From Desulfurococcales archaeon (GTDB taxonomy: Archaea; Thermoproteota; Thermoprotei_A; Sulfolobales; WAQK01), in the NCBI GenBank assembly GCA_027083135.1, contig JALWQH010000052.1:24448-88447 (forward strand): a DNA stretch of 64,000 nucleotides, written 5' to 3'. Every line of letters begins with the position of its first letter. Within the stretch, counting starts at the first letter, position 1. The notes under the pieces were generated by a model. The model was not told where the DNA came from and searched no databases. It saw only the letters and a program-made list of their open reading frames with translations. The position numbers and the translations under genes were made by a program. Shown here one piece after another: positions 25,567 to 46,671 of the stretch.

Positions 25567-25968
25567 CTATGTAGTTCTGCTATGGGGTTGTCTCTCTATC
25601 TTCTCTTTTACGTACTTTAGCGCTTCCTTAAATGCTTCTTCAATTTCTCCAGGATAATGGTATGGCTTTACTATATGATCGTGTTTTTCGTGGAAGTGAT
25701 GAGGAAAAGTTGATATATGTCTATGTGCTTCATGTGGTGTATTATCCCATCGATATATGGTACCATCTATGTGACGCCTCTCCCAATGTATGGCGTATCT
25801 ATTAGGCAGTCTCCGCGAAATCCATACATCAATAAAGCTTTCATCGATGAAGTATATTCTTAATTTACCATACACTATCTCTGTATCAATAACTATTTCT
25901 GGATATAAGCTGATAGCAAGCTCTCTAAGCCTCTCAAGTATCTCATCCATATTATCGCTTTCACTCAC
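25567..25968 (-). CDS. Putative toxin, DUF6516/TumE-like
   Basis: KLRIYFIDESFIDV, YAIHWE, RWDNTPH..H..TFPHHFH motif recognised as DUF6516-like. Confidence 0.7.
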   Translation of the reverse strand: MSESDNMDEILERLRELAISLYPEIVIDTEIVYGKLRIYFIDESFIDVWISRRLPNRYAIHWERRHIDGTIYRWDNTPHEAHRHISTFPHHFHEKHDHIVKPYHYPGEIEEAFKEALKYVKEKIERQPHSRTT

Positions 25969-26261
25969 TCCCTTGTGCCCTCCAATTCCTCTAAAAGGTT
26001 CTTTAACTTCTCCTCTCGGTCAAGTAAGTAATCGAGACGAGTAAGATCCTCAAAGACCTTTGTTTCCTCTAGTTCTCCTCGCCTAATCTTCTCGTCAAGT
26101 TCTTCAATACTCGATACACCGTATCGAGCCATAATGAGTTTAGATTCCGACTTAACATGTCTAAGCTCGGATAAAATATACTGGCGTAACGCTTCTCTTT
26201 CTAGTACATCCTCTTCAACGCCAAGTATCTTAGATGCCCTTTTATATAATAGACTAGCCAA
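25965..26261 (-). CDS. Putative antitoxin (small helical protein, TumA-like)
   Basis: 4-bp overlap upstream of the toxin-like gene; RYGVSSIEELDEKIRRGEL..FED pattern. Confidence 0.6.
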   Translation of the reverse strand: MASLLYKRASKILGVEEDVLEREALRQYILSELRHVKSESKLIMARYGVSSIEELDEKIRRGELEETKVFEDLTRLDYLLDREEKLKNLLEELEGTRE

Positions 26262-27241: not shown

Positions 27242-28321
27242 TTGCCTGCATACAGGGATAGGAGAATCAAGGTTATTGGAAAGGCAGGTGTTAATGCCCT
27301 GGTTATAGGGTATCCAGCTAACATGAGGTATCTTGTAGGAGTGGGGCTTGAGACCTATGAGAGGCCCTGCCTACTCCTGGCTAATAGGGATCACGCTATA
27401 TTGCTTGCCCCTGAACTAGAGGCTGAGAGAGCTCGGAAAGCCTCCGTTAACGACTTAATACTCTATGGAGATGACGATAATCCTTATCGAATAGTGGCTG
27501 AAGCCTTGGAGGACATGGTGCCCAGGAAAGGCGTGGTAGGCTTTGACGGATGGATGCCCCTTAAACACTATATACGTATAGTGGAGAACCTGGATGTGAG
27601 GACAGTCTTGGTGGATGAGGCGCTGTATAGTGTTAGAGAGGTTAAAGATGAGGAGGAGATAAGGATTCTACGCCGATCTGCTGATCTCCTACAGGAGATC
27701 TTTGAGCGCATTCCAGGATTATTGGAGAAGGGTATAAGTGAAGCAGATCTGGCATTTGAGCTTGCAAGAATTGCTGCTGGGAGGGGGGCAGAGGATGCCC
27801 ATGCACTCGTCCAGTTCGCTGAGAACTCAGCTATACCTCATCACACGTATTCTGCGAGAACTCTGAGGCAAGGTGAACTCGTGTTGGTTGACATGGTTCT
27901 AAGCCTGAATGGATACTACTCAGATATAACCAGGATGTTCAGCCTCGGAGAGCCTCCTAGAGAAGCCGTCAAAATAGCTAGAATAGTGGGTGAGGCTAAC
28001 AGGGCTGCACGGCTTAAAGCGTCACCAGGTGTTAAGGCAGGCATAGTTGACGAGGCGGCGCGCCGCGTGATAGATACGGCAGGATATGGGGATTATTTTA
28101 CTCATCGTACAGGCCATGGACTGGGATTAGAGGTTCATGAAAGACCCTTCATAGCCCCTGGAAGCAGCGTGGTCTTATCTGAGGGAATGGTATTCACAGT
28201 GGAGCCAGGAATATATCTGACAGGACGCTTCGGGGTTAGAATAGAGGATGACGTGGTGGTCACGGAAAATGGTGTAGAGGTTCTGACAGGCAGGTTGCCT
28301 AGGAAAATAATTGCTGTCTAG
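27242..28321 (+). CDS. pepQ: Xaa-Pro peptidase (M24B)
   Basis: AIPHH, YYSDITR, HRTGHGLGLEVHE, TVEPGIY, GVRIEDD. Confidence 0.9.
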   Translation: MPAYRDRRIKVIGKAGVNALVIGYPANMRYLVGVGLETYERPCLLLANRDHAILLAPELEAERARKASVNDLILYGDDDNPYRIVAEALEDMVPRKGVVGFDGWMPLKHYIRIVENLDVRTVLVDEALYSVREVKDEEEIRILRRSADLLQEIFERIPGLLEKGISEADLAFELARIAAGRGAEDAHALVQFAENSAIPHHTYSARTLRQGELVLVDMVLSLNGYYSDITRMFSLGEPPREAVKIARIVGEANRAARLKASPGVKAGIVDEAARRVIDTAGYGDYFTHRTGHGLGLEVHERPFIAPGSSVVLSEGMVFTVEPGIYLTGRFGVRIEDDVVVTENGVEVLTGRLPRKIIAV

Positions 28322-28884
28322 GAGCCTGGCCTGGCCCAGGGCTTCTTATTAAACATTATTTCAAGTGCTCTGAGAAAAGCATCCTCATCGTAGGCTTCAT
28401 CAATTCTCCAAGGCTGCGGTTCAACCCTATAGCCTATCCTACTCCAGAAATACTGCTTCACCTCGTCCTCAGGAGCTGTTATAAGCCACGAGAGTACTGA
28501 TAATTGTCTTCCAATGCTTTCCACTGAAGCCTCTCCGAATATCCGTAGAAAACCCAGCATTACTGAAGCATCTACGGGGGGCGGGGCTCTCAACCAGCTT
28601 CTAACCCAGAAGGTTTCATGAAGCCTGTGAACCCACATCTCCTTACCCTTCTTCACAGCAGGCCTTACAAAGGCCTCCCACAGTGCATCCTCAGCTACAT
28701 GTGCGAGAACCCCTCCAATATAATTCTCAGGTAGTTTGAAAGCCTCGTAGAATCCTCCCCCCACCAGGTACATCCTTCTATGAAGCACAGTCTTAGCAGG
28801 CTCCAAATCACAGGCAAAGGAGATTAAAGCATCTTTCTCACTCATAAATTTCTTTGTGAGAAGATAATGTAGGTATGTATGCAT
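28318..28884 (-). CDS. Hypothetical protein, possible zinc-dependent hydrolase
   Basis: N-terminal HTYLH, central DL and GVLAHVAED motifs like phospholipase C/P1 nuclease-fold metal ligands; co-oriented just downstream of GH18. Confidence 0.45.
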   Translation of the reverse strand: MHTYLHYLLTKKFMSEKDALISFACDLEPAKTVLHRRMYLVGGGFYEAFKLPENYIGGVLAHVAEDALWEAFVRPAVKKGKEMWVHRLHETFWVRSWLRAPPPVDASVMLGFLRIFGEASVESIGRQLSVLSWLITAPEDEVKQYFWSRIGYRVEPQPWRIDEAYDEDAFLRALEIMFNKKPWARPGS

Positions 28885-28903
28885 GAACCCTCAGCCTGTG
28901 CTT

Positions 28904-30340
28904 TCATATTGTGTTATTTTTCTTGGTGTAGTAGTATGCTGCTGCTGGTATTATGATGATTATTATGATGGTTGCAGCCCAGAGGCCAGCAGTAGAAGCA
29001 CCCCTCTCAACAGTCTTGGTCAATGTGCTTATGGAAAGCGTACTGGATACAATGGTTCTTGTCACCGTGGTTGTCTTGCTAGTTGTTGTGCCTGTACTGC
29101 TAGTGGTGGTTTTGCTGTGAGTACTAGTGGTCGGCGTGCTCGTCGTGGTTTTCATGGTAGTTGTGGTGGTCTTGCTGGTTGTGGTGGTTCTACTTGTCGC
29201 AGTACTCGTAGTCGTAGTAGTCGTGGATGCAGTGCTACTAGTAGTCGTAGTAGAAGTAGTGGAAGAAGCAGCAGTACTCGTAGTCGTTGTAGTGGTGGTG
29301 CTTGGCGTTATTTTGCCTATGAGGGTATCGTATATGGCCTTCCATATTAGGGGATCTCCTCCGTCAAGCCTCCATACAGCCACTCCGGGGAGCTTGTATT
29401 TTCTAGCTATGATGGCCTTGTAGACCACTGTTTCATGGTCGTTGTAATATATGGCTGTAGTACCTAGATCCAGGTATTTTTCCTTGTATGTCTGGTCGAA
29501 TACGGGTTTCAATCCTCTCTCTTTGATTAGGTTGGAAATGTAGTCGTACATATGCCAGTCAACAAGTTTACCGTCTTTCGTCCACTCCCATCCATAGGAT
29601 GGTATGCCCATCAGGAGCTTGTTTCTGGGAATATAGTTGAGGGCATATTTTACGCAGGCTTCAACCCAGCTTGGAGGTGCTACGGGTCTGGGGACTCCTT
29701 TAAGCTCATAGTAGTCGTAGGTCATTATCATAATGTAGTCTACCCCTGATTGTCCAAGAGCCTTGTAATCGTATGCTCCTAGGAAGCTGTTAGTCGAATA
29801 TGCCATGCGTTTTGCAGCCACATCTACTGTGAGCTTGAGGCCTGCCTTATGGAATACGTAGGCTAGTCTGCTTAGAAACTGGGCGAAAGTCTGAGCGTCT
29901 TCAAGCATAGGGGCTTCGAAATCTATGTTAAAGCCATTATACCCGTAGGTCTGTGCTATTTTTATCAGGGTGCTTGAGAAGTTATGGAAGGCTGCTGGAT
30001 TAGTGAAAAGCTGATGCATTCTTTCAGGCACGTTGCTTACAACCATTGGGTGAATCTTTATCCCATACTGGGAGGCCAGGTTGATCAGGTTTAGATCATT
30101 AGCACCGCGATCAGTGAATACCCCTATGCTTCCATTATCCTTGAGGACGAACCAATCGGGCGATATCCAGCTTATGTACTCATGGTTCTCCTTGATCACA
30201 TCATATACCTGGGGAGTAACCTTGTAGATCCATGCTACTACTAGGGGCTTAGTCGAGCTGCTGGCTCCATAGGTTAGGTGTATTCCCGGTGCTAGGGAGA
30301 TCATTATAAGGACAGCCAGCATACACGCATACTTGAACAC
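28904..30340 (-). CDS. Surface-anchored glycoside hydrolase family 18 (chitinase / spore-cortex-lytic-like)
   Basis: Signal peptide, GYNGFNIDFE catalytic motif, IMTYD, LLMGIPSYG, GVAVWRL, Ser/Thr linker, C-terminal TM plus basic tail. Confidence 0.9.
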   Translation of the reverse strand: MFKYACMLAVLIMISLAPGIHLTYGASSSTKPLVVAWIYKVTPQVYDVIKENHEYISWISPDWFVLKDNGSIGVFTDRGANDLNLINLASQYGIKIHPMVVSNVPERMHQLFTNPAAFHNFSSTLIKIAQTYGYNGFNIDFEAPMLEDAQTFAQFLSRLAYVFHKAGLKLTVDVAAKRMAYSTNSFLGAYDYKALGQSGVDYIMIMTYDYYELKGVPRPVAPPSWVEACVKYALNYIPRNKLLMGIPSYGWEWTKDGKLVDWHMYDYISNLIKERGLKPVFDQTYKEKYLDLGTTAIYYNDHETVVYKAIIARKYKLPGVAVWRLDGGDPLIWKAIYDTLIGKITPSTTTTTTTSTAASSTTSTTTTSSTASTTTTTTSTATSRTTTTSKTTTTTMKTTTSTPTTSTHSKTTTSSTGTTTSKTTTVTRTIVSSTLSISTLTKTVERGASTAGLWAATIIIIIIIPAAAYYYTKKNNTI

Positions 30341-30481
30341 AGCTCTACACCCTGATAGGATAGGGAGGGGTGAGTAAAGTATCTTGAATAATTACTTTAC
30401 ATGTATGGAACTTGTTGTTCTTGACACTACTTTATTTAGAGTCAGGGAATACGCTCTAAAAGAACAGGGTAATAGTGGGAG

Positions 30482-32398
30482 GTGTGTGGGTTCTTGATTA
30501 AGGATAGGATAAAAATAATCGGTATGAGTGTAATACTAGCAGTAATGCTGTTGTCCTTGATCTCCCCCTCCATAGCTCATGCACAGCAGAAAGAGACAGT
30601 ATTGAAGGTTGGTATTCCTGGAGAGATCGATAACTTCAACCCGCTCATAGGGCTCTTCGGCGCAGCAGGCTATATTAGAGGCCTGCTGTTCGATACACTG
30701 CTCATAATGCCATCTAATAGGAGCTACTGCCCCTGGCTTGCTCAGAGTTGGACGGTTAACGAGAAGAACTTGACAATAACCTTTAAGCTCCGCCCCAACC
30801 TGAAATGGCATGACGGCCAGCCGCTGACAGCTAAGGATGTTGAGTTCACATTCAACCTAATCATAAACTCCAAGTACACGCCTAAGCTGGATAGATGGAA
30901 CCTCCACAACTACATAGCCTATGTTAAGGCTATTGACAACCGTACTGTGGTCTTCAAGCTGAAGGAGCCGTTTGCTCCTATCCTATGGTACATAGGCCTG
31001 TTAATACCTGTGCTACCCGAACATATTTGGAGCAAAGTTGATCCAACAACGTTTAAGAACACGGAGCATCCTATTGGAAGCGGTCCATTCAAGTTTGTGA
31101 AGTATACTCCAGGCGTATCAGTAGAGCTTGAGGCGTTCGATGACTATTTTGCAGGCCGCCCCAAGATAGACAAGTTGATCATAGGACTATATAAGAGCAC
31201 TGACAGCGTCCTGCTAGACCTTCAGGCAGGAGCCATAGACGCTATTGCAGGCATGACTGTGGCCCCGGAGCTTGTGCCAACACTACTCAAGGATCCCCAT
31301 ATAAGAGTAGTGATAAGGCCTGACCTAGGATACATAAGGTTCATGGGCTTCAACCTAGACAAATATCCCTTCAATGTGAGGGAGTTCAGGGAAGCCGTGG
31401 CATACGCCATAGATAAAGACTATATTGTTAAGACAGTTATGCTAGGATATGCTGACCCTGCAGCAGATGGCTGGGTTCAGCCGATCCAGGGCATATGGTA
31501 TAATAAGGCCATAGGCTATAGGAAGCAGAATCTCACTAAGGCTATGCAGATACTTGACTCCATAGGCTTCATAGATAGGGATGGAGACGGTATAAGGGAG
31601 ACGCCTAATGGCACTAAGCTAGAGTTCACGCTGTTGACGCTGGCAGGCAGAACAGAGTTCGAGAGGACTGCTGAGATAATTGCAAACTGGCTTAACCAGA
31701 TAGGAATAAAGGTGAAGGTTGAGGCCTATAGCCTTGGCACAGTAGACCATAAGGAGGGTGTAGGAGACTTCGACATGGGACTCATGGGTGTGGGAGGCCT
31801 TACAGCTGAGATAGATTACTATCTATACCCAAGGTTCCACAGCAGCGGCGCACCACCCATAGGCAAGTATGCGCCTAGAAACTGGTTTAGATATAGGAAC
31901 CCTGAGGTAGACAAGCTGCTAGAGGAGCAGAGAACAGAGCTTAACCTCACTAAGAGGATACAGATAGTCTACAAGATACAGGAGATCATAGCCCACGACA
32001 TACCAGTAGTGACACTATATGTGAAGAGATATGTAACCGCCTATAGGACTGACCGCTTCGTCAACTGGAATGAGAAGGAAGGACCTGCAAGCAAGCTATC
32101 ACTACTGCAGGTTAAGCCTAGGGGGCCAGCAACAGTAACAACAACTAAGACAGCCACCTCTGTGACAACCTCAGTTGTCACAACAAGCAAGGTCTACACA
32201 ACTGTTGTAAAGACAACGATAAGCGGCACACCTACAACCGTTGTTAAGACCATGACCTCTGCCACAACCTATACGACCACAGTGCCAGTAACCTACACTA
32301 AGAAGACGGGGATAAGCACCGCTGCGGCCATAGGAATCGCAATAATAATAGCAATAATTGCCGCAGCAATAGCATACTGGGCTGCTAAACGGGGATAA
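30482..32398 (+). CDS. Opp/Dpp-family ABC substrate-binding protein, C-terminally anchored
   Basis: LRPNLKWHDGQPLTAKDV, IGSGPF, FREAVAYAIDK, DRDGDGIRE; Thr-rich linker plus TM. Confidence 0.93.
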   Translation: MCGFLIKDRIKIIGMSVILAVMLLSLISPSIAHAQQKETVLKVGIPGEIDNFNPLIGLFGAAGYIRGLLFDTLLIMPSNRSYCPWLAQSWTVNEKNLTITFKLRPNLKWHDGQPLTAKDVEFTFNLIINSKYTPKLDRWNLHNYIAYVKAIDNRTVVFKLKEPFAPILWYIGLLIPVLPEHIWSKVDPTTFKNTEHPIGSGPFKFVKYTPGVSVELEAFDDYFAGRPKIDKLIIGLYKSTDSVLLDLQAGAIDAIAGMTVAPELVPTLLKDPHIRVVIRPDLGYIRFMGFNLDKYPFNVREFREAVAYAIDKDYIVKTVMLGYADPAADGWVQPIQGIWYNKAIGYRKQNLTKAMQILDSIGFIDRDGDGIRETPNGTKLEFTLLTLAGRTEFERTAEIIANWLNQIGIKVKVEAYSLGTVDHKEGVGDFDMGLMGVGGLTAEIDYYLYPRFHSSGAPPIGKYAPRNWFRYRNPEVDKLLEEQRTELNLTKRIQIVYKIQEIIAHDIPVVTLYVKRYVTAYRTDRFVNWNEKEGPASKLSLLQVKPRGPATVTTTKTATSVTTSVVTTSKVYTTVVKTTISGTPTTVVKTMTSATTYTTTVPVTYTKKTGISTAAAIGIAIIIAIIAAAIAYWAAKRG

Positions 32399-32409
32399 GA
32401 TAGCCTGGT

Positions 32410-33399
32410 GTGAGGGAGACTCCCAAAATGCCATCCTCTTTTTTGGTACGGAGGTCAATTAGACTCATCATAACATTCTTCATTATAGTTATCCTAGACT
32501 TCCTTCTCCCCAGGCTTATGCCTGGAAACCCTGTGGCAATACTCGTCAAGCAGAGCGGGCTGCCGGACTCAGCTATCCAGCAGCTCACAAAGCAGTTTGA
32601 ACTGGATAAACCTTTGTATGATCAGTTCATAGCATACATAGTTAACCTCTTCAAAGGTAACTGGGGGTATAGTTACAGGTATTATCCTACACCGGTGAAG
32701 GACCTGATATTTCAGAGGCTTCCATGGACGCTCCTGCTGCTCGGCACGTCCTCGATAACCGTCTTTCTCTTCGGCGTTTTTCAAGGCTTTCTGGCAGGAT
32801 GGAGACATGGAACCAAGACTGATTCAACCATAACGCTCGTAGCGGTCCTAGTATACGCTATACCCTACTACTGGCTTGCACTAGTGCTTCAATACTTCTT
32901 CGGATACAAGCTTAAATGGCTGCCTACATCTCAGGCCTTAACGTTTGGAGCAGTATATCATAATTTCCTAGACTATGCCTTAGATGTGGCTCGGCACCTT
33001 GTGCTGCCTGTAACAGCTATAACGCTCACAGCATATGCTGCATACACGCTTGTTACGAGAAACACCATGATAGATGTGCTTGGAGAGGACTTCATAGTCA
33101 CAGCTAAGGCTAAGGGTCTTCCTGAGAGGAAAGTTATGTGGCATGCTGCTAGGAATGCTATGCTACCCCCTGTCACTATGCTGGCAATAAGGCTTGGACA
33201 CATGGTTGGGGGAGCAGTATTCACGGAGACAGTGTTCTCGTATCCCGGAGTAGGGCTACTCATCTATGAATCAATAATCTACAAAGACTACCCGGTGCTT
33301 AACGCTGCATTCTTCATTCTAGCTATAACCGTGATCATTGCCAACTTCATAGCAGACCTGCTATATGCATGGCTTGACCCCAGGGTGAGATATAGATGA
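32410..33399 (+). CDS. Opp/Dpp ABC permease (OppB-like)
   Basis: LMPGNP, EDFIVTAKAKGL, ETVFSYPGVG, DPRVR. Confidence 0.93.
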   Translation: MRETPKMPSSFLVRRSIRLIITFFIIVILDFLLPRLMPGNPVAILVKQSGLPDSAIQQLTKQFELDKPLYDQFIAYIVNLFKGNWGYSYRYYPTPVKDLIFQRLPWTLLLLGTSSITVFLFGVFQGFLAGWRHGTKTDSTITLVAVLVYAIPYYWLALVLQYFFGYKLKWLPTSQALTFGAVYHNFLDYALDVARHLVLPVTAITLTAYAAYTLVTRNTMIDVLGEDFIVTAKAKGLPERKVMWHAARNAMLPPVTMLAIRLGHMVGGAVFTETVFSYPGVGLLIYESIIYKDYPVLNAAFFILAITVIIANFIADLLYAWLDPRVRYR

Positions 33400-34292
33400 C
33401 CAGGATCACGCTGAGCGAGGAGAGAAAGGAGAGCATTACCAAGCTTCTACATGGACTATACTATATCTTCATAAAGGATAAAAAGGGCTTACTAGGCTTC
33501 ACCATAATTATGGGCTTCGCCATAATAGCTATCTTTGCTCCCCAGCTAGCCCCCTATAATCCGCGTGCAATGATTGGAAGGCCGTTTGAGCCTCCCAGCC
33601 ACAAGCATCTCCTAGGAACCAATGATGTTGGGCAGGATATTCTCAGCGAAGTCATATATGGGACAAGGGTGAGCTTCTATGTGGGGCTGACAGCCCCTAC
33701 GATATCCACTATAATAGGCCTTCTCCTAGGTCTGGCTGCAGGGTACATGGGTGGCAAGATCGATGAGCTTATCTCAGGCTCCATAGACGTGATGTTAGCC
33801 ATACCTGGCTTACCATTAATCATAATACTTGCAGCGTATCTGGGGCAGAGCCTCAACAACATTATACTAGTATTAGCGATAACAGGCTGGGTAGGTGTGG
33901 CTAGAGTCGTACGATCTCAGGTTCTAAGCATAAAGGAAAGACTATATGTTGAGGCTGCAAGAGCGGTAGGTGCAAGTGACTCTAGGATCATGCTTAACCA
34001 CATTCTTCCCAACGTAATGCCCCTTATGGCTGCCTATGTGATCCTAGGGGCAACCAGCGCTATACTGACTGAGGCTGGGCTAAGCTTTCTAGGACTAGGC
34101 GATCCCACGGCTATTAGCTGGGGCCAGATACTTCACCATGCGCAAGTGAAGCATGCTCTTCAGCTTGGATTATGGTTGTGGGCCATAGTGCCAGGCTTAA
34201 TGATAGCTCTAATGGGAATGGGCTTCACGCTGCTAGGCATGTCGATGGAGGAGTACCTTAACCCCAGGCTTAGAAGCTACCAGGCAGCCTAG
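33396..34292 (+). CDS. Opp/Dpp ABC permease (OppC-like)
   Basis: HLLGTNDVGQD, YVEAARAVGAS, HILPN, LSFLGLG, NPRLR. Confidence 0.93.
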   Translation: MTRITLSEERKESITKLLHGLYYIFIKDKKGLLGFTIIMGFAIIAIFAPQLAPYNPRAMIGRPFEPPSHKHLLGTNDVGQDILSEVIYGTRVSFYVGLTAPTISTIIGLLLGLAAGYMGGKIDELISGSIDVMLAIPGLPLIIILAAYLGQSLNNIILVLAITGWVGVARVVRSQVLSIKERLYVEAARAVGASDSRIMLNHILPNVMPLMAAYVILGATSAILTEAGLSFLGLGDPTAISWGQILHHAQVKHALQLGLWLWAIVPGLMIALMGMGFTLLGMSMEEYLNPRLRSYQAA

Positions 34293-34294
34293 CC

Positions 34295-35833
34295 CTAATC
34301 ATTAAAACAAGTATGTCCTGAAGGAAGTTTTTCGCTTAAAGTTATGGGTAGCCTGCCTTTAGGCCTGCATCTCCCTTTAATCAGGTTGAAGAGCGCTTTC
34401 AGGGAACAATACCTGTAGCTGTAAGCTGCTACTACAACCTTATATCCGCTTAGATCTACTTGTCTAAGCCACACAGGATTTCCAAGCGATACCAGCATCC
34501 ATCCTCTGGGCGGAAGCCTTGATAAATCCCCGGCCGAATAGAATAACACTATCATTCTCTCAGGCTCTAGTTTCCCTGCACCTAGCCTGACGCACTCAGC
34601 CTTTATTCCCGTCTCACGAGCGATGCCGCACGCCGATATAACTCCTCCGGCTCCTGCTACGGGTGAAGGGGCGTTAAGCCTAGGAGGATAGGTTATCAGA
34701 GGCTTTGAGGGAGGATTACCGAGTTTGCTGCATCCTCTAATTACCGTGAGAGCCCTGCAGGCCTGCTCAACGCATTTTTCAACATGTTTCTTGGAGCCTA
34801 CTATTTCTTCAGGCCTGCTTGAAGGCTTTATTCTTAGCCGCTTGGCCAGCATCTCCCTCCTAGTAATGCTGGCCTTCAGCCTATCCTCATCTACGTCTCC
34901 TCTCAGAACCAGTTTAAGCATTCTGTCATAGGCTCTCTTCTGAACCCTGAGCGTATGGGAGAACATTATTATGTCTAGGCCTGCCTTTAATGCCAGGTCT
35001 ACTATCTGCTCTGGAGTATACCTGGATGCCACGGCCTTCATCTCCATGCAGTCTGATACTATTAGGCCGTTAAACCCCATGTCTCTAACCATGTTTACAG
35101 CCCTGGCCGAGAGACTTGCAGGAACCTTTGAGTCAATCGCATCCACGAGTATGTGTCCAAGCATGACTGCATCAACTCCTCTCCGCACAGCGTATCTGAA
35201 GGGGGCTACATGCTCCTCCAGCTCTAATGCACTTAGCCTCACCCTAGGTAGATCATAGTGTGAATCAATGATCGTTGATCCATGGCCGGGGAAATGCTTG
35301 GCAGTAGCACCTACGCCTGAGGAGTGCAGCCCTTCTATGAAGGCTGCCCCCAGCTTTGATACGAGTTCAGGGTTCTCTCCAAAGCTTCTTTCGCTCACAA
35401 CGCTGCTTTCAGGCTCCTTAAGCACATCGAGGACTGGTGCCAGATCTAAGTTTATACCCATTGCTGCAAGCTCTCTTCCAATGATCCCTCCAGCCTGCCT
35501 CGCCTCGCTCTCCAAGCCTATAGCCCCTAAAGCCATGTTTCCAGGCATAGGTGTAGTGTACCTAGGCATTCTGAGAACCATTCCACCCTCCTGGTCAACC
35601 ATTATGAGGGCTCCGCTAAGCCCCCGGCTCCTCACGTGCTCATCAATGCTTCTAGTGAGAATTGAGACCTGCCGAGGATCTCGGAGATTCCTATTGAATA
35701 AGACTATGTTAGGTATATTCCACTCGGCAATGACCCGGCGTGCATGATCGTCTTTCAGGCTTACTCCATCGAAGCCGAAGGCAAGCATACTACCCGCAAT
35801 ATCCTCGGGTTCAAAAATACCCGTGGACCTCAC
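34295..35833 (-). CDS. nagZ: GH3 beta-N-acetylhexosaminidase (NagZ type)
   Basis: VDQEGG.V.R, APVLD, RSFG, NagZ signature KHFPGHG...DSH, nucleophile SDCMEM. Confidence 0.9.
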   Translation of the reverse strand: MRSTGIFEPEDIAGSMLAFGFDGVSLKDDHARRVIAEWNIPNIVLFNRNLRDPRQVSILTRSIDEHVRSRGLSGALIMVDQEGGMVLRMPRYTTPMPGNMALGAIGLESEARQAGGIIGRELAAMGINLDLAPVLDVLKEPESSVVSERSFGENPELVSKLGAAFIEGLHSSGVGATAKHFPGHGSTIIDSHYDLPRVRLSALELEEHVAPFRYAVRRGVDAVMLGHILVDAIDSKVPASLSARAVNMVRDMGFNGLIVSDCMEMKAVASRYTPEQIVDLALKAGLDIIMFSHTLRVQKRAYDRMLKLVLRGDVDEDRLKASITRREMLAKRLRIKPSSRPEEIVGSKKHVEKCVEQACRALTVIRGCSKLGNPPSKPLITYPPRLNAPSPVAGAGGVISACGIARETGIKAECVRLGAGKLEPERMIVLFYSAGDLSRLPPRGWMLVSLGNPVWLRQVDLSGYKVVVAAYSYRYCSLKALFNLIKGRCRPKGRLPITLSEKLPSGHTCFND

Positions 35834-35837
35834 CTCT

Positions 35838-35859
35838 CATGCACAGTATACTGTGCATG
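35838..35859. promoter_or_regulatory. Perfect 22-bp palindrome, candidate operator
   Basis: CATGCACAGTATACTGTGCATG in the divergent nagZ/regulator intergenic region. Confidence 0.55.
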
Positions 35860-35915
35860 CTATTTTGCTTTTAATTTTATATGCCATGCTACATTAGGTT
35901 TTTACATGGGTTACA

Positions 35916-36887
35916 ATGCTTGTAGAAACACGTAAGGTTATATCGGCTGGCAGGCGCTCCAGAGCCGTAACGCTCCCTAAGAAATGGGTTGTTGAGCACG
36001 GGGTGAAGCCCGGAGACCCTATGGAAATAGTGCTAGAGGAGGACGGCTCTCTTAGAATACGGCCGTTGAAGACCTCTCCAGCCACACCCATGGTAAGCGA
36101 GGTATTCGTAGAGAAGCCTGGCAGCAATGTCAACGATATAGTGTTCACGCTGATAGGATACTATGTTAATGGGTATAATGTGGTGGTGATGCCTCCATCC
36201 CCGCAGGTATATGAGGCTCTCTCCAGGCTTGAAGACATGCTTATAGGAGTATTATACATTGATCTAGGAGAGCAGGTCAAGGTTAAATTCATAGTCTCGG
36301 AGGGTAAGATAGGATCGTACGAGATAGCATCAAGGCTTGCAGGCCTGCTTTCAAGGCTCTCCAGCAAATATATGGATTCCCTGGAAACAGGTAGCATGAT
36401 GGACCTCAATGATGTTCTCCGCATTGAAAGCGAGGTTGACAGGCTATATTATTTAGGACTAAGAGTACTTAACACCGAGCTTACTAGAAGCATAGCTGAA
36501 TGGCATATCAAGGAGTATGTCAGGCTCTCATCGATGAGAGTAGCGCTTAAAGTCATGGAGGATATATCTGATGCTTTTGACCGTAGCACTAGGACAATAC
36601 TTAGACTAGGCTTAGGCATAGTGAGTGAAGAATACCTTAAGATACTGAGAAGCGTCTCTAAAATAGTGGTTGATGCTGCCCAATCCTTCCTGGAGCTAGA
36701 TAGACTCAAGGCTAGCAGAATACTTAAACTCAGAATAGATGTGAAGAAAGATCTAGTCGAATTCAAGAAAAAAGCATCTGTTGAAACTCAGATGCTTATA
36801 TCAGAGCTTGAAATAATGCTGGCTCTAGCAGCAGATCTAGCTGAAATAGCCATAATGGATTCCATAACAAGCAGAAAGCATGCATAA
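35916..36887 (+). CDS. AbrB-PhoU type regulator (COG0704-like)
   Basis: N-terminal RKV..GRRSRAVTLPKKW AbrB domain; ESEVDRLY PhoU-like helical domain. Confidence 0.85.
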   Translation: MLVETRKVISAGRRSRAVTLPKKWVVEHGVKPGDPMEIVLEEDGSLRIRPLKTSPATPMVSEVFVEKPGSNVNDIVFTLIGYYVNGYNVVVMPPSPQVYEALSRLEDMLIGVLYIDLGEQVKVKFIVSEGKIGSYEIASRLAGLLSRLSSKYMDSLETGSMMDLNDVLRIESEVDRLYYLGLRVLNTELTRSIAEWHIKEYVRLSSMRVALKVMEDISDAFDRSTRTILRLGLGIVSEEYLKILRSVSKIVVDAAQSFLELDRLKASRILKLRIDVKKDLVEFKKKASVETQMLISELEIMLALAADLAEIAIMDSITSRKHA

Positions 36888-37097
36888 GGATAAAGGGAGC
36901 CTACCTACAAGTACACTAGCATACAGACCTTTAGCCTCCTCTTATGCGAGTACTATTCAATTCAACAAAACATGGATCCTCCGATTACAACTAGGTATAA
37001 AATGCAGAGATGCCGGTGGGAGTAGCCTGCAGGATGCAGGAAGCGGAAAATAGTATAATAAACACATGCATATCATGTTTCAGGGAAGGGTGGAATC

Positions 37098-38894
37098 ATG
37101 GACGCCCGTCTAGCCGCATCTGTGGCAATAATAGTGTTAATAATAGTAGCTTCTGCTTCAGCCATATATCTCCGGTCTCGTAGAACGGCATCCACGACAA
37201 CTTCAAGCAGTCCGAGTAGCCTGCCTCCTTCCACAATTACCTCAACTACAAGTACATCTATGGCTGCGCGTACAAGTACGTATAGTACGAGAACCACTAC
37301 TAGCACTACTATCACGACAACCACTATATCATCATCGAGCACCACTACAACTACTCATACTACTCCGAGTCCAACTACTACCATGACAACTAAAACACCA
37401 ACATTCACCACAACCAGCACCACCACGATGACCAGTACTACAACCACTATCTCGAAACCCAGCCTCTCCCAATACCTTGCTAGGCAGATCAACGGGCTGC
37501 TTGAACTCTACCCTGAACTCAATCTTAACGCAACAGGCATACTTATCACCACTCTGAACGGAACAGTATTGTACTCGCTTCACCCCCATGAACCTCTCAT
37601 ACCAGCATCAAACATGAAGCTCCTAACAGCAGCGGCGGCTTTAAAGTACCTTGGGCCAGACTATAAGTTCAAGACGGTCTTCATAGTCACAGGGAAAATC
37701 GAGAACTCCACGCTTCACGGAGACATAATAGTTAGAGGCACAGGGGATCCCACCCTTGTTAGCGGCGATTGGGCTGATGAATGGTCACATAAGGTTGCCT
37801 ACCTCTACGATACTGAGCACCTCTTAGATGATGCTGTGAAGCCCTTAGAGAAGCTAGGAATAAAGCGTATCGATGGAAACATAATAATAGATGACTACTA
37901 CCTTGACCACCAGTGGGTTAACCCTACCTGGGAGAAGGAGGATCTCTCACACTGGTATGCTGCTCAGATAGGGGCCCTTGGAATAAACAGGAATATCGAG
38001 CTGCTTGAACTATACCCGCAGCCTTCAGGCAAGGTCAAAATAAAAGTCGTGCCTGACGTCGGCTACATCAACGTGACCTTCGCTGGAAGAGTAGTGAAGA
38101 GCAGCAGCGATGTAAAACAGTGGGCTGTAGAGGTCAGAGAGCCTGGGACAAATAATGTTAAAATAGTCGGAGATCTTCCCATGGATATAGATGTCTACTA
38201 CCTATCTGTAACGGTTAATGATCCAGGTATGTATTTTGGAGCAGTATTCAAGAAGGTCCTAGAGGATCATGGGATAAAGGTTATGGGAGGAGTCAAGCGG
38301 GCTAATACTACTGGGTGGAAGAATCAGACGATCACTGTGATAACTCTTCAATCAAAGCCTCTTAAAGATATTATAAGATTAATGCTTAAGAAGAGCCTTA
38401 ATCTCTACGCAGACCACCTCTTCAAAGTTCTAGGAAAAGTAGTGGTAGGCGAGGGCTCCTGGAAGGGAGGCTCTAAGGCTGTGGAAAAAATGCTGAGGGA
38501 TCTGAGCATAATGGAGGATGGAGTTAAAATAGTTGATGGTTCAGGGCTCTCCAGGGAGAACAGGGTTACTCCAAGCCTCCTAGTAAATTTGCTGCGCATA
38601 TATGCAGGTAATAAGATCCTCTATAATTCCCTGCCCATAGCAGGCTGGGACGGCACGCTTAAGCATAGGATGCTGGACACCCCTGCTGAGGGTAACTTAA
38701 GGGCTAAGACAGGAACCCTCACAGGAGTATCAGCTCTTAGCGGCTATGTTAAAACCAGGGATAATGTAACACTAGTATTCTCAATGCTGTTCAACGGCTT
38801 CCATGCAACAGCGCACAAGGTTAAATACGAAATAGAGGACTATATAGGGGCTCTTCTAGCAGACATAAATACATCTAAGTACAAGGTGCCCTAA
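37098..38894 (+). CDS. dacB: D-Ala-D-Ala carboxypeptidase/endopeptidase (PBP4, peptidase S13), membrane-anchored via Ser/Thr stalk
   Basis: PASNMK (SxxK), GTGDP, KKSLN (SxN), DGSGLSREN, AKTGT (KTG), LSGY; N-terminal TM and long Thr/Ser linker. Confidence 0.92.
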   Translation: MDARLAASVAIIVLIIVASASAIYLRSRRTASTTTSSSPSSLPPSTITSTTSTSMAARTSTYSTRTTTSTTITTTTISSSSTTTTTHTTPSPTTTMTTKTPTFTTTSTTTMTSTTTTISKPSLSQYLARQINGLLELYPELNLNATGILITTLNGTVLYSLHPHEPLIPASNMKLLTAAAALKYLGPDYKFKTVFIVTGKIENSTLHGDIIVRGTGDPTLVSGDWADEWSHKVAYLYDTEHLLDDAVKPLEKLGIKRIDGNIIIDDYYLDHQWVNPTWEKEDLSHWYAAQIGALGINRNIELLELYPQPSGKVKIKVVPDVGYINVTFAGRVVKSSSDVKQWAVEVREPGTNNVKIVGDLPMDIDVYYLSVTVNDPGMYFGAVFKKVLEDHGIKVMGGVKRANTTGWKNQTITVITLQSKPLKDIIRLMLKKSLNLYADHLFKVLGKVVVGEGSWKGGSKAVEKMLRDLSIMEDGVKIVDGSGLSRENRVTPSLLVNLLRIYAGNKILYNSLPIAGWDGTLKHRMLDTPAEGNLRAKTGTLTGVSALSGYVKTRDNVTLVFSMLFNGFHATAHKVKYEIEDYIGALLADINTSKYKVP

Positions 38895-43905: not shown

Positions 43906-44718
43906 ATGTTCTTCAATCCTCTTGATAGGAAGCCTATAGGTAGAAGCGGCGAGCATGTGTCTGCTATTGGTATAGGTACCTGGGGCATTAGGGATTATGG
44001 CAGGGCTGAGGACACGTTAGCAATGCTTCCCGAGTACGGCATAGATAATATAGATACTGCGGAGATGTATGGTGGGGGATTAGCTGAGAGGCTTGTGGGA
44101 AGAGTTCTAAGGAGAGTTGGCAGGGATAGGTTATTCATAACCACTAAGATGCTGCCCTACCATCTCTCCTCAAGGGATGAAGTAATATCTGCTGCTAAAG
44201 CCTCGCTTAAAAGGCTTGGCGTAAGCCAGGTGGATCTATATCTAATACACTGGCCTAATAGGGAGATCCCTATTTCAACACAGGTTAGGAATTTTGAGGC
44301 GGTGTATGAGGAAGGTTACGCCAGGTATATTGGGGTCAGCAACTTTGATGTCGGAGAGCTTGAGGAGGCTATGCATTCAACCAGGATAGCTGAGATAGTT
44401 GTTGACCAGGTTCGCTACAGTATTCTGAGACGGGATGTAGAGTGTTCTCTCCTCCCATACGCGGTGAGAGAGGGCATCACTCTGCAGGCATACACCCCCC
44501 TCGAGCATGGAGCCGTGGCTAGCCATGAGGCTGTGATCAAGGCTGCTAGAAGAGTTGGAAAAACACCTATACAGGTTGCATTAAACTACCTTATATCTAA
44601 GCCTAGGGTGATAGCCATACCTAAAACTGAGGATCCGGGGCATCTAAGAGAGATTGCTGGCTCCATGGGTTGGCGGCTTCCAGCAGATCTGCTGGAAGCG
44701 CTCTCACATATTGTTTGA
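43906..44718 (+). CDS. Aldo/keto reductase
   Basis: IGIGTW, IDTAEMYG, DLYLIHWP, IGVSNF, IPK. Confidence 0.93.
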   Translation: MFFNPLDRKPIGRSGEHVSAIGIGTWGIRDYGRAEDTLAMLPEYGIDNIDTAEMYGGGLAERLVGRVLRRVGRDRLFITTKMLPYHLSSRDEVISAAKASLKRLGVSQVDLYLIHWPNREIPISTQVRNFEAVYEEGYARYIGVSNFDVGELEEAMHSTRIAEIVVDQVRYSILRRDVECSLLPYAVREGITLQAYTPLEHGAVASHEAVIKAARRVGKTPIQVALNYLISKPRVIAIPKTEDPGHLREIAGSMGWRLPADLLEALSHIV

Positions 44719-46671
44719 TGAGGCCTCTCCTAATAGATGCTTGTCGAACCATTCTTTTATCGCCTTAATCCTTGCCACTCTTCTCCTAGGCTTGCCGCTG
44801 CGGCTTAGATTATGGTTCTCCTCTGGGAACAACAGCATTTTAACTTCAACTCCCTTCTCCTTTAGTGCTGTGTATAGTTGTAGTGCTTGGTCTAGCCAGC
44901 ATCTATAGTCTTCTAGGCTGTGTATTATTAGGAGGGGCGTCTCAACACCATCAACATACCTCAAAGGACTCCTAAACCAATACTCCTCATGACTACGCCA
45001 TGGCGGTAGACCTCTCCCAATCTGCTCCTTATTATAGTAGAAGCCTATGTCGGTTGTCCCATACTTGCTTGTCCAGTTGCTTATGGATCTCTGGGTGACT
45101 GCTGCTTTGAACCTGTTGGTGTGGCCTATGATCCAGTTCGTCATAAAGCCCCCATAACTACCACCAGCAACCCCTGCCTTACCAGGATCAAGCCCTATGC
45201 CTACCATGGCATCATACACGTCCATGAGATCCTGATAATCCTTGTCTCCGTATCCTCCCCTAATATCAGCGAACTCCTCACTATAACCGTCGCTCCCCCT
45301 AGGGTTTGGTAGGATGAGGGTATAGCCTGCGCCGCTAAGCACGTGGTATTCATGCATGAAGCCGCATCCATGCATCATCTTAGGGCCTCCATGAATGTAA
45401 AGTACCCATGCTCCATTAGGCTTTACAGCTGGCTCCAGGATCCAGGCATCTATGCTGAGCCCATCCCTCGTTCTAACATCTATGCGTCTCTGCCTCCCCA
45501 AAACTCTGCGCTTAACCCAGGTCTCAGTGTGCCTGGTAAGCCTCTTAGCCTCGCCTCCTTCCAGCAGGTATAGTTCTTTAGGGGATGCTGGATCCATGTA
45601 GGTGTATGCTAGTACCCTCCTTCCAGCTGAAAACTCGTCCACTACGCCGCAGTCTGGGGTGATCACAGGTTCCACTTCTCCCTCAGGGCTGGCTCTGTAG
45701 AGATGCGTTCTCCCCGCATCTGAGATTTGAAAGTATATCCACTTGTCCTCAGGCCATGCAATGTTTTTAGAGCAGGAGGGGCCTCGCACATCGCTTCCAG
45801 CAGTATTAAGAGCATTTCTCCTAAGCCTACATGTAACGCATTTAGCCTCACGGCCTCTAAGGTTGATCACATGTACCTTGTAGTGGGATGCGAAGCCTTT
45901 CCCAAAGCTCCTAGCAATAACCGCAAGCATGTCTCCCCGAGGGCTCCACTCTATTGATACAATGGAGTATCCTTCCAGCAGCCTCTCCTCGGAACCTGTT
46001 TCAAGGTCAAGCACCATGAGTCTCTGTAAGTGGGGCTTAAGCTCATCATAGGTTCTCGCATAGGCTATCTTACCTCCATTGGGGCTTACAGCGTAGGAGG
46101 ATATGTCGAAGGATCCGTGAACCAGCTCCTCTATCCTGCCTGAAGGCACCTCAACCCTATAGAGACCTGTAAACCTGTCGAAGATGAATCCCTCCCCGTT
46201 AAACCATACGGGGAGCCTGGAGACCTCCAATACATCCCTGTCACGATAATCCTTCCATCCCCCTCCTCCTAGGGGAGCTCTGCTTAAAGCATAGATAAAC
46301 CTGCCTTCAGGATCCCATGAGAGGCTGCTTGCCCCATGCCTAATTACTGCAAGCTTCCATGCCTCCCCTCCCTCCCTACGTATAAGCATAATCTCTGATC
46401 CCTTTCCATCATCAGGGCTTCTAAGAAATGCCAGCATAGTTCCATTAGGATTCCAGGCTGGACACTTATCGCTGGTTCCTCCAGTTAAAGGCCAGGTCTC
46501 TCCACCGTGATCTACGAGCCATATGGATGACTCGTACCTATTCTTATCCAGGTTGATCCTTGTTAAAATGTAGGCTGTTAGCCTTTGATCAGGGCTTAGA
46601 ACAGGGTTTGAAACTAGAGGCAGCTCGCCTAGATCCTCTGCTTTAACCGTGTTCTCAGCCAATATCCTCAC
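44704..46671 (-). CDS. S9 family acylaminoacyl peptidase
   Basis: Beta-propeller N-terminus, IHGGP, GGSYGG nucleophile, EDYRC, ENH. Confidence 0.92.
   Translation of the reverse strand: MRILAENTVKAEDLGELPLVSNPVLSPDQRLTAYILTRINLDKNRYESSIWLVDHGGETWPLTGGTSDKCPAWNPNGTMLAFLRSPDDGKGSEIMLIRREGGEAWKLAVIRHGASSLSWDPEGRFIYALSRAPLGGGGWKDYRDRDVLEVSRLPVWFNGEGFIFDRFTGLYRVEVPSGRIEELVHGSFDISSYAVSPNGGKIAYARTYDELKPHLQRLMVLDLETGSEERLLEGYSIVSIEWSPRGDMLAVIARSFGKGFASHYKVHVINLRGREAKCVTCRLRRNALNTAGSDVRGPSCSKNIAWPEDKWIYFQISDAGRTHLYRASPEGEVEPVITPDCGVVDEFSAGRRVLAYTYMDPASPKELYLLEGGEAKRLTRHTETWVKRRVLGRQRRIDVRTRDGLSIDAWILEPAVKPNGAWVLYIHGGPKMMHGCGFMHEYHVLSGAGYTLILPNPRGSDGYSEEFADIRGGYGDKDYQDLMDVYDAMVGIGLDPGKAGVAGGSYGGFMTNWIIGHTNRFKAAVTQRSISNWTSKYGTTDIGFYYNKEQIGRGLPPWRSHEEYWFRSPLRYVDGVETPLLIIHSLEDYRCWLDQALQLYTALKEKGVEVKMLLFPEENHNLSRSGKPRRRVARIKAIKEWFDKHLLGEASSNNM

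Follow-up and report, generated by a model that had tools for sequence, protein, structure and literature searches.

The locus at positions 27242-38894 of a 64,000-nucleotide stretch of a Desulfurococcales archaeon genome (GenBank assembly GCA_027083135.1, contig JALWQH010000052.1; the whole stretch is called the window below) is probably the front end of a muropeptide scavenging pathway. Judged by its genes and their genomic context, it would comprise the surface and uptake end of a bacterial-type system for scavenging peptidoglycan fragments, together with the first cytoplasmic step, a reading to which we assign a probability of about two in three. An earlier sequence-only reading of this DNA had proposed an outside-in pathway, in which wall material is cut at the cell surface, imported, and hydrolyzed inside, and the genomic evidence supports such a route. 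Every gene that it named in the locus was recovered at its position by an open reading frame (ORF) listing and by Pfam and NCBIfam profile scans (Table 1), the equivalog cut-offs quoted below being those of NCBIfam, and topologies were read from the translated proteins with a hydropathy and composition script. The host genome (G000; 1.75 Mb in 57 contigs, 99.6% complete) contains no PF00905 transpeptidase and no Mur ligase, so that the organism does not make peptidoglycan, as had been supposed, and the pathway would serve scavenging and not recycling as in Bacillus subtilis.

The first surface enzyme is a Peptidase_S13 protein of the PBP4/DacB type, which scores 315.2 bits against the TIGR00666 (PBP4) equivalog (cut-off 107.8) and aligns end to end, over all three domains, with B. 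subtilis PBP4a (structure 1w5d, E = 1.2e-54) and Escherichia coli PBP4 (2ex2). Its motifs are all intact (S171-NM-K174, S433-L-N435, and K537-T-G539) and align with those of 1w5d, and residues K174, S433, N435, and K537-G539 are invariant across nine members of its clade. An N-terminal transmembrane (TM) segment (residues 1-28) and a Thr/Ser stalk (about 30-125, the Ser/Thr/Pro-rich composition extending up to residue 136) precede the catalytic domains (127-588), and the protein is predicted to be a surface-tethered DD-carboxypeptidase/endopeptidase, in keeping with the surface-anchored PBP4/DacB with intact SxxK, SxN, and KTG motifs described in the earlier reading. The clade is small (56-97% identity), and TM segment and stalk are common to the four members whose sequences were read. 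A search with the S13 alignment returned 35 loci in genome contigs, one of them archaeal (L059), and a single-sequence query returned none. In a near-identical strain, homologs of the S13 protein (97%) and of the NagZ-type protein discussed below (93%) are each recorded on a contig of 12,227 bp, while a more distant pair, P0002 (S13, 76%) and P0130 (NagZ, 60%), are each recorded on a 26,350-bp ENA contig; the equal contig sizes suggest that the two genes are linked in those strains.

The second surface enzyme is a glycoside hydrolase of family 18 (GH18), for which the topology script agrees with the signal peptide, Ser/Thr stalk, and C-terminal TM segment noted previously: a hydrophobic N-terminal segment is followed by the catalytic domain (about 30-340), a region rich in Ser, Thr, and Pro (327-453), and a C-terminal TM segment (446-472). 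A comparison with SleL/YaaH and with chitinases had been suggested, and among solved structures the protein lies closer to the SleL/YaaH side, with E-values of 7e-27 for 5jh8, 8e-24 for 4wiw, 6e-23 for YdhD (3cz8), 7e-20 for YaaH (4s3k), and 4e-18 for SleL (4s3j), and with 4q6t also within this range (7e-27 to 4e-18), as against 2e-12 for CHID1 and 1e-5 to 1e-7 for the ChiA and ChiB types. The catalytic D140-F-E142 (N138-IDFE142) aligns with the DFE of 5jh8 and 4wiw, and Asn stands in both positions where the classical DxxDxDxE motif has its upstream Asp residues. On sequence grounds, the enzyme is placed in the YaaH/SleL/YdhD glucosaminidase subgroup and not among the classical chitinases. 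Some bacterial homologs at 32-33% identity carry the source name YaaH, and one further homolog (33% identity) bears PG_binding_1/2/3 domains. SleL and YaaH carry LysM or other wall-binding domains; the Pfam scan of the archaeal protein found the catalytic domain alone, with neither a wall-binding nor a carbohydrate-binding domain, and the Thr-rich stalk and TM segment stand where its relatives have the binding module. Table 1 of one review lists YaaH/SleL, YdhD, YkvQ, and YvbX as GH18 wall hydrolases of B. subtilis, and glucosaminidase activity as demonstrated for SleL of Bacillus anthracis (PMC10653849). The archaeal GH18 is accordingly proposed as a tethered endo-N-acetylglucosaminidase acting on the peptidoglycan glycan, gene context favoring cleavage between N-acetylglucosamine (GlcNAc) and N-acetylmuramic acid (MurNAc). 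A second, weak GH18-like ORF (C38:36880-38079 of the host genome; L042:6880-8079) adjoins a GH130 mannoside phosphorylase and a GT4 gene; its similarity is confined to part of the domain (32-38% identity), and it has no Pfam match at 1e-4.

Between these two enzymes lies a family 3 glycoside hydrolase (GH3) carrying the NagZ signature (K179-HFPGHG and D190-S-H192, aligned with 6k5j). The solved structures that it matches best are 6k5j (2.5e-72) and YbbD/NagZ of B. subtilis (2e-57), and it reaches 189.2 bits against the NagZ equivalog NF003740, just below the cut-off of 207. At its C terminus it carries about 180 additional residues with no Pfam match, and neither a hydrophobic segment nor a signal sequence was found by the topology script. 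The protein is thus predicted to be a cytoplasmic NagZ-type β-N-acetylglucosaminidase, as the KHFPGHG..DSH signature had indicated. Some of its bacterial relatives are fused to PF05913/PF19200 or to PF05036, which we take to be MupG and SPOR domains.

Uptake would be mediated by the family 5 binding protein and the two OppB/C-type (PF00528) permeases of the locus, the Opp-type set that had been recognized. The binding protein, too, is tethered, with an N-terminal segment, a Ser/Thr-rich stalk (545-613), and a C-terminal TM segment (608-637). The earlier suggestion that Opp/Mpp import of murein peptides applies to this transporter is not supported as stated, since the binding protein is closer to sugar binders than to OppA and MppA is missing among the 60 solved-relative matches listed: its nearest solved relatives are 8efz, chitooligosaccharide binders of Vibrio, and a mannoside binder of Thermotoga (about 1e-44), AppA (4e-41), and OppA (5e-23), and it scores 48 bits against NF011684 OppA. 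It is also the best match in the host genome of the binding proteins in AnmK/NamZ loci of four genomes of family f7 of the order (27-30% identity), and the permease encoded at 32410-33399 is the best match there of permease 1 in the AnmK loci of that family (36-38% identity).

Pathway genes elsewhere in the genome and in other archaea

The host genome was searched family by family with profiles for muropeptide and wall-synthesis enzymes, and the inner part of a muropeptide pathway was found on other contigs (Table 1), the genes as a whole being split over at least four. AnmK and NagA, for which a search had been recommended, were both recovered above their equivalog cut-offs in a divergent cluster on contig C43, where AnmK and a PF00144 protein face an SIS_2 protein followed by NagA. 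GlmS-like and HD-associated proteins are encoded just upstream of this cluster (C43:49808-57208, L041), and a second GlmS-like ORF lies on C4. A NamZ protein is encoded on C9, and an S66 LdcA-like peptidase is paired with a γ-glutamyltransferase on C29; the two enzymes could act on stem peptides, trimming the D-Ala end and the γ-D-Glu bond. None of the cytoplasmic pathway enzymes of this genome has an N-terminal hydrophobic segment.

Several of these families belong together in bacteria. NagZ, AmiE, and NamZ of B. subtilis act jointly on peptidoglycan, digesting it from the non-reducing ends (PMC8054146), AmiE being a PF00144 protein (PMC10653849, Table 1), and murQ, murP, and yfeW, which encodes PBP4B, form one operon in E. 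coli (PMC5061867). The SIS_2 protein of C43 belongs to the UPF0309 family and resembles NagS, a GlcNAc-6-phosphate dehydratase that is placed next to MurQ among the SIS enzymes (PMC12680351). From its context and from the C3 elimination chemistry that NagS and MurQ share, it may be the missing lactyl-ether lyase.

Four independent links tie the genes of the window to peptidoglycan in other archaea. First, P0007 (941 residues) joins in one chain a TM segment, a stalk, a GH18 domain, and an S13 domain, in this order, with 46% identity to the GH18 and 58% to the S13 protein of the window. Second, genome G018 encodes a 910-residue protein with GH18, Amidase_2, and GHL10 domains, which adjoins an Opp-type operon. 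Third, in a separate lineage (G214), a GH18 gene of the same type and an Amidase_2 gene are divergently oriented, and AnmK lies at a distance of 2.3 kb. Fourth, in family f7, AnmK shares its loci with genes for a binding protein of the Opp type and two permeases, for an AbrB-type regulator, and for a PF00144 protein, as well as with NamZ (G008 and G018) or SIS_2 (G048 and G058). In L050 and L051 (G008 and G018), AnmK is separated from the Opp permeases by a GH13 α-amylase-family protein of 659-704 residues.

The distribution of these families was followed in 61 genomes of the order, the host included, and in an evenly sampled set of 401 genomes of the phylum. Within the order, S13 occurs in the host alone (1/61), as does the NagZ-type GH3 (1/61), the 13 other GH3 matches being 657-783 residues long and 25-33% identical. 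The GH18 catalytic domain is found in three of the 61 genomes (the host, G008, and G018), 11 other matches covering the stalk only, while AnmK is present in seven (the host and six of six genomes of f7) and NamZ in five (the host and four of four genomes of one f7 genus). Across the phylum, 34 genomes encode AnmK and 42 encode NamZ, with 32 holding both, two AnmK alone, and 10 NamZ alone; in nine genomes, from several families, the two lie no more than 8 kb apart, which points to a conserved archaeal MurNAc module well beyond the host. This type of GH18 is present in 25 of the 401 genomes, and AnmK in 18 of those 25 against 16 of the remaining 376; counted by genus, AnmK is found in 9 of 11 genera with the GH18 and in 9 of 151 others. 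S13 is confined to four of the 401 (three genera in three families), three of them with AnmK. The phylum overlaps were counted by hand from lists and are descriptive, uncorrected for kinship among genomes.

Proposed route and competing explanations

In the proposed route, the tethered S13 peptidase would cut D-Ala-D-Ala ends and D-Ala-(meso-diaminopimelic acid) cross-links outside the cell, and the tethered GH18 would cut the GlcNAc-β-1,4-MurNAc bond, freeing small muropeptides such as MurNAc(peptide)-GlcNAc. The binding protein and the two permeases, energized by ATPases encoded elsewhere, would import such fragments or those shed by bacteria. Tethering, the importer, and the cytoplasmic NagZ, NamZ, and AmiE-like proteins point to uptake of oligomeric fragments and their internal breakdown. 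Inside, NagZ would remove non-reducing GlcNAc and NamZ non-reducing MurNAc, the AmiE/PBP4B-like PF00144 protein would strip the stem peptide, and AnmK would turn 1,6-anhydroMurNAc into MurNAc-6-phosphate. The NagS-like SIS protein is the candidate lactyl-ether lyase in place of MurQ, NagA would deacetylate GlcNAc-6-phosphate, and the stem peptide would be handled by the S66 LdcA-like peptidase, encoded beside the γ-glutamyltransferase, and by general peptidases. The purpose would be mainly nutrition, the debris of bacterial walls at a hydrothermal site supplying carbon and nitrogen; harm to live bacteria through contact would be possible and secondary.

The best-surviving alternative, which we nonetheless consider unlikely, is use of chitin, chitooligosaccharides, or GlcNAc-containing glycans such as the chitobiose core of N-glycans, with GH18 releasing, the Opp-type transporter importing, and NagZ splitting the sugars, and with S13 as an unrelated neighbor. 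GH18 is the main chitinase family, Vibrio chitooligosaccharide binders are among the top solved relatives of the binding protein, NagA and the ROK hexokinase are present in the genome, and a GH38 mannosidase lies 20 kb off. The GH18 also has a sub-threshold match (E = 7e-4) to GH85, an endo-N-acetylglucosaminidase family, and its homolog in G329 matches GH85 and EndoS weakly; 6k5j, the closest solved relative of the GH3, presumably comes from a chitin-degrading Paenibacillus, its record title being only "GH3 beta-N-acetylglucosaminidase". Against this explanation, the GH18 matches the YaaH, SleL, and YdhD structures at 1e-18 to 1e-27 and ChiA/ChiB at about 1e-5, it bears no carbohydrate-binding domain by Pfam, and the genome holds no PIG-L deacetylase. 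It had been argued from the start that chitin use alone would not explain DacB, and the argument now extends further, for AnmK, NamZ, the PBP4B/AmiE-like protein, and the S66 peptidase would likewise be left without a role, and these families and S13 co-occur with, fuse to, or neighbor this type of GH18.

Slightly less probable again is a locus that serves primarily as a weapon, in which the tethered S13 and GH18 lyse or weaken bacteria on contact and uptake of the products is incidental. Archaeal wall hydrolases that kill a bacterium exist, and patchy distribution of the kind seen here is read as typical of weapons (PMC12352652); both enzymes are also extracellular by topology. They are, however, anchored in the membrane and not secreted, neither carries a wall-binding domain by Pfam, their genes accompany those of an importer and a cytoplasmic glycosidase, and the genome encodes a near-complete route for catabolism of the products. 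S13-type DD-peptidases are not known to act alone as lytic weapons, which also counts against this explanation. It is compatible with scavenging and does not exclude it, and sequence does not separate feeding on bacteria from attacking them.

It is very improbable that the genes serve the organism's own envelope or generic peptides, with S13 as a D-stereospecific or general peptidase in protein fermentation and with GH18 and NagZ recycling the organism's own glycoproteins: peptidases abound in the genome (two S9 in the window, the M24, and the S9 beside NamZ) and the surface proteins of Crenarchaeota bear many chitobiose-linked glycans, but 60 of the 61 genomes of the order, whose envelopes are assumed to be similar, do without S13 and the NagZ-type GH3, the S13 protein keeps every PBP4 motif and all three domains, and AnmK and NamZ would be left without a substrate.

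A number of observations weigh against peptidoglycan scavenging itself. The search of the host genome did not recover canonical MurQ, the AmpD-type Amidase_2, Amidase_3, or NagB (PF01182). The best TIGR00274 match, where MurQ had been sought, reaches 33.7 bits against a cut-off of 302, and the search for amidases yielded only the PBP4B/AmiE-family PF00144 protein beside AnmK, so that the etherase and amidase steps rest on unproven analogs. Distant UPF0309 homologs are reported to have lacked the activity of NagS, and the UPF0309 family has no known etherase activity according to the same account (PMC12680351). The racemase that had also been looked for was not convincingly present, the sole PF01168 match in the genome being BhcC/D-threonine-aldolase-like with 43 bits for alr against 168. 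On the uptake side, the nearest solved relatives of the binding protein are chito- and manno-oligosaccharide binders, it shares only 27-32% identity with its counterparts in the AnmK loci of f7, and no ABC ATPase gene lies between 27242 and 38894. Enzymes tethered under or within the S-layer may reach only small soluble fragments. The expectation of synteny in related genomes failed for S13, which lacks GH18, NagZ, or Opp neighbors in all five archaeal contigs that could be judged (L059, L099, L103, L095, and L096; L094, L100, and L101 were too short and were left out of the count). The nearest relatives of the host, G001 (96% complete) and G002 (87%), have none of S13, NagZ-type GH3, GH18, AnmK, and NamZ, which marks the set as a recent or patchy acquisition. 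Finally, the co-occurrence counts overstate the support, because related genomes are not independent.

A broader synthesis is more tentative than the scavenging reading and, taken as a whole, is rather more apt to fail in some part than to hold throughout. It states that peptidoglycan is a regular food for about one in ten of the sampled Thermoproteota, that the MurNAc/anhydroMurNAc module was acquired horizontally and lacks MurQ, that the NagS-like SIS protein is a new MurNAc-6-phosphate lactyl-ether lyase, and that this vent archaeon has added a tethered DD-endopeptidase and a glucosaminidase with which it dismantles polymeric wall and perhaps preys on live bacteria.

Regulator, accessory genes, and locus layout

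The regulator of the locus had been described as an AbrB/PhoU protein. Its AbrB part was confirmed (Table 1), while the PhoU part was not, no PhoU domain being detected in it at E ≤ 0.01 by Pfam; a 25%-identical homolog in G329 does match PhoU. The protein has no hydrophobic segment. Weak homologs (25-29% identity) occur in the AnmK loci of G008, G048, G058, and G329, and the regulator of G018 matches that of the window across just 48 residues. A perfect 22-bp palindrome, CATGCACAGTATACTGTGCATG, which has one match in the window and none in 100 shuffles, lies in front of the regulator gene and is a candidate operator, through which the AbrB-type protein would probably control the locus. No motif was shared between the promoters of the window and those of the genes on C43, C9, and C29, for which a script without statistics found short k-mers in common only.

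Three further genes may contribute. An ORF for a conserved 188-residue protein, missing from the earlier gene list, lies 20 bp downstream of GH18 on the same strand and is probably co-transcribed with it. Its family is tiny, with 10 relatives among 1.84 billion representatives, and residues H6, D26, H35, H62, D66, H86, and E90 are invariant. Its AlphaFold2 model is all-α with a predicted local distance difference test score of 89.6, and Foldseek found no match for this model in the PDB at E ≤ 0.001; the top five rows of VIA-align are Zn-dependent phospholipase C and S1-P1 nucleases with Z-scores of only 4.1-4.7, and Atlas gives a weak lead to PF00882. This protein may be a metal-dependent hydrolase tied to the locus, possibly a new one. 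An Amidohydro_3 gene 2 kb upstream of the locus encodes a protein with 42% full-length identity to an Amidohydro_3 protein (L097:10243-11835) directly adjoining AnmK and the AbrB/PhoU regulator in G329, and it may belong to the pathway. The Xaa-Pro peptidase of the earlier reading is present as an M24 gene with a Creatinase_N domain (PF00557, 199.5 bits; PepQ_Arch, 174.7 bits, under the equivalog cut-off of 630; no hydrophobic segment), and no specific tie of it to a peptidoglycan pathway was found, so that its membership is uncertain.

Contamination or misassembly was considered as a source of the locus and ruled out. Its G+C content (0.455-0.50) is that of the remainder of the window, and archaeal genes stand on the contig, with housekeeping genes on both flanks (TFIIB, family-B polymerase with an intein, aRF1/Pelota-type, ABCE1, SUI1, and PheRS), which shows that the locus is not a contaminant; the Thr-rich stalk with a TM segment also recurs in other proteins of the host and its relatives. 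The intein of the polymerase gene has a LAGLIDADG domain. Between the Amidohydro_3 gene and the locus, a TumE-family toxin gene and a small upstream ORF probably form a toxin-antitoxin pair, and two tandem S9 peptidases and a GH38 α-mannosidase share the window.

Table 1. Features of the window and related genes on other contigs (C) of the host genome.
Feature	Position	Strand	Evidence or remark
Family-B DNA polymerase gene with intein	9965-13516	+	
Amidohydro_3 (YtcJ-like) metallohydrolase, 527 aa	23592-25175	+	PF07969, E = 5e-121; outside the coordinates of the earlier reading
TumE-family toxin gene and small upstream ORF	25567-26261	-	
M24 peptidase with Creatinase_N	27242-28321	+	Pfam
188-aa conserved protein	28318-28884	-	ORF listing
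GH18	28904-30340	-	PF00704, 96.6 bits
Intergenic region between divergent GH18 and transporter operons	30341-30481		ORF listing
Family 5 binding protein	30482-32398	+	SBP_bac_5 PF00496, 305.8 bits
ATP-binding cassette (ABC) permease, OppB/DppB type	32410-33399	+	PF00528 and BPD_transp_1_N
ABC permease, OppC/DppC type	33396-34292	+	PF00528 and OppC_N
GH3, NagZ type, 512 aa	34295-35833	-	PF00933 N-terminal domain, 242.4 bits
22-bp palindrome	35838-35859		between NagZ and regulator start codons
AbrB/SpoVT-fold (AbrB/MazE-fold N-terminus) regulator, 323 aa	35916-36887	+	PF04014, E = 1.1e-11
Peptidase_S13 (PBP4/DacB type)	37098-38894	+	PF02113, 356 bits (cut-off 22.8)
Two tandem S9 (Dpp5-like) peptidases	44704-48551	-	
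GH38 α-mannosidase	59200-61773	+	
AnmK	C43:52915-54120		PF03702, 314.7 bits; NF007148, 452.4 bits (cut-off 387)
PF00144 protein beside AnmK	C43		best model PBP4B, 188 bits (cut-off 385); likened to AmiE by family only
UPF0309 SIS_2 (NagS-like) protein, next to NagA	C43		passes NF002805; match to SCO4393/NagS, E = 2e-45
NagA	C43		TIGR00221, 307.6 bits (cut-off 225.65)
NamZ, adjoined by an S9 peptidase	C9		NamZ_N, 183.8 bits; NamZ_C, 137.3 bits
S66 LdcA-like peptidase, then γ-glutamyltransferase on the same strand	C29:38999-41498 (L115:6999-9498)		
ROK hexokinase	C2		
OppD/F-like ATPase pairs	C43 and C49		

Relation to known systems and significance

The recycling pathway of Gram-negative bacteria involves AmpG or Opp/MppA, NagZ, AmpD, LdcA, AnmK, MurQ, and NagA. 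The archaeon has in common with it a cytoplasmic NagZ, AnmK, NagA, an S66 LdcA-like peptidase, a PBP4B-like protein, and an S13 protein of the PBP4/DacB family, and differs in that AmpD-type Amidase_2 and MurQ were not found in its genome and its binding protein is not MppA-like. PBP4 of E. coli is a soluble periplasmic protein, whereas the archaeal S13 protein is tethered by a Thr-rich stalk.

The murQ-murR-murP-amiE-nagZ-namZ genes of B. subtilis provide the same families of exo-acting enzymes as the archaeon, namely a NagZ GH3, an AmiE-like PF00144 protein, and NamZ (PMC8054146; PMC5061867). Muropeptide rescue in that bacterium leads to MurNAc-6-phosphate and GlcNAc-6-phosphate, as is proposed for the archaeon, and its set of wall hydrolases also includes GH18 glucosaminidases of the YaaH/YdhD type (PMC10653849). 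As these sources describe it, B. subtilis secretes NagZ, AmiE, and NamZ and takes up monosaccharides via the phosphotransferase system, whereas the archaeal enzymes have no signal sequences and uptake would proceed through an ABC importer with a tethered binding protein. MurQ, MurR, and MurP were not found in the archaeon, in which AnmK is present, while the B. subtilis control gave no AnmK match, and the genes form one operon in B. subtilis as against at least four contigs in the archaeon.

Tannerella forsythia, with its NamZ1 and NamZ2, likewise takes peptidoglycan fragments from cohabiting bacteria and employs NamZ-type exo-muramidases (bioRxiv 10.1101/2021.12.02.470905). From the same preprint, it salvages MurNAc to build its own wall, whereas the archaeon has no wall-synthesis genes and must therefore catabolize MurNAc. 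For the SIS_2 protein beside the NagA and AnmK genes, the closest precedent is NagS (SCO4393) of Streptomyces, true orthologs of which are reported in Streptomycetaceae only (PMC12680351), and the reaction of the archaeal protein is suggested by its context.

Among archaea, Strock et al. (2025; PMC12352652) reported modular peptidoglycan hydrolases in 175 of 3,706 genomes, two of which were shown to kill a bacterium. As in the present case, the hosts make no peptidoglycan and encode wall hydrolases of bacterial type, and the distribution of these enzymes is patchy. The published screen, as set out in its main text, required a catalytic and a wall-binding domain and addressed killing, whereas the proteins described here have no such binding domain by Pfam, are tethered, and accompany uptake and catabolic genes. 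The words S13, carboxypeptidase, GH18, and Thermoprote- are absent from that main text, and its supplementary tables S2 and S10 may list some of the families. No published account of AnmK, NagZ, or muropeptide catabolism in archaea was found in a literature search outside which most subscription journals fell. The closest known systems are muropeptide rescue in B. subtilis and Gram-negative recycling, whose parts are homologous to those of the archaeon; the archaeal case differs from them in a host that makes no wall, stalk-tethered outer enzymes, uptake by an ABC transporter, and a pathway for which MurQ and AmpD were not found.

In a study of geothermal communities, wall-degrading enzyme families were among the most abundant and were not assigned to archaea (PMC10437873). 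Among the pools of bacterial necromass, peptidoglycan ranks as one of the largest, and, if the proposed pathway is real, such archaea would consume the carbon and nitrogen of bacterial walls in hot anoxic habitats. Archaeal-bacterial interactions would then include feeding beside the killing shown by Strock et al., and the pathway would be a source of thermostable DD-peptidases, glucosaminidases, and exo-muramidases, and perhaps of a new type of MurNAc-6-phosphate etherase. It would also offer a testable function for the UPF0309/NagS-like SIS family outside Streptomyces.

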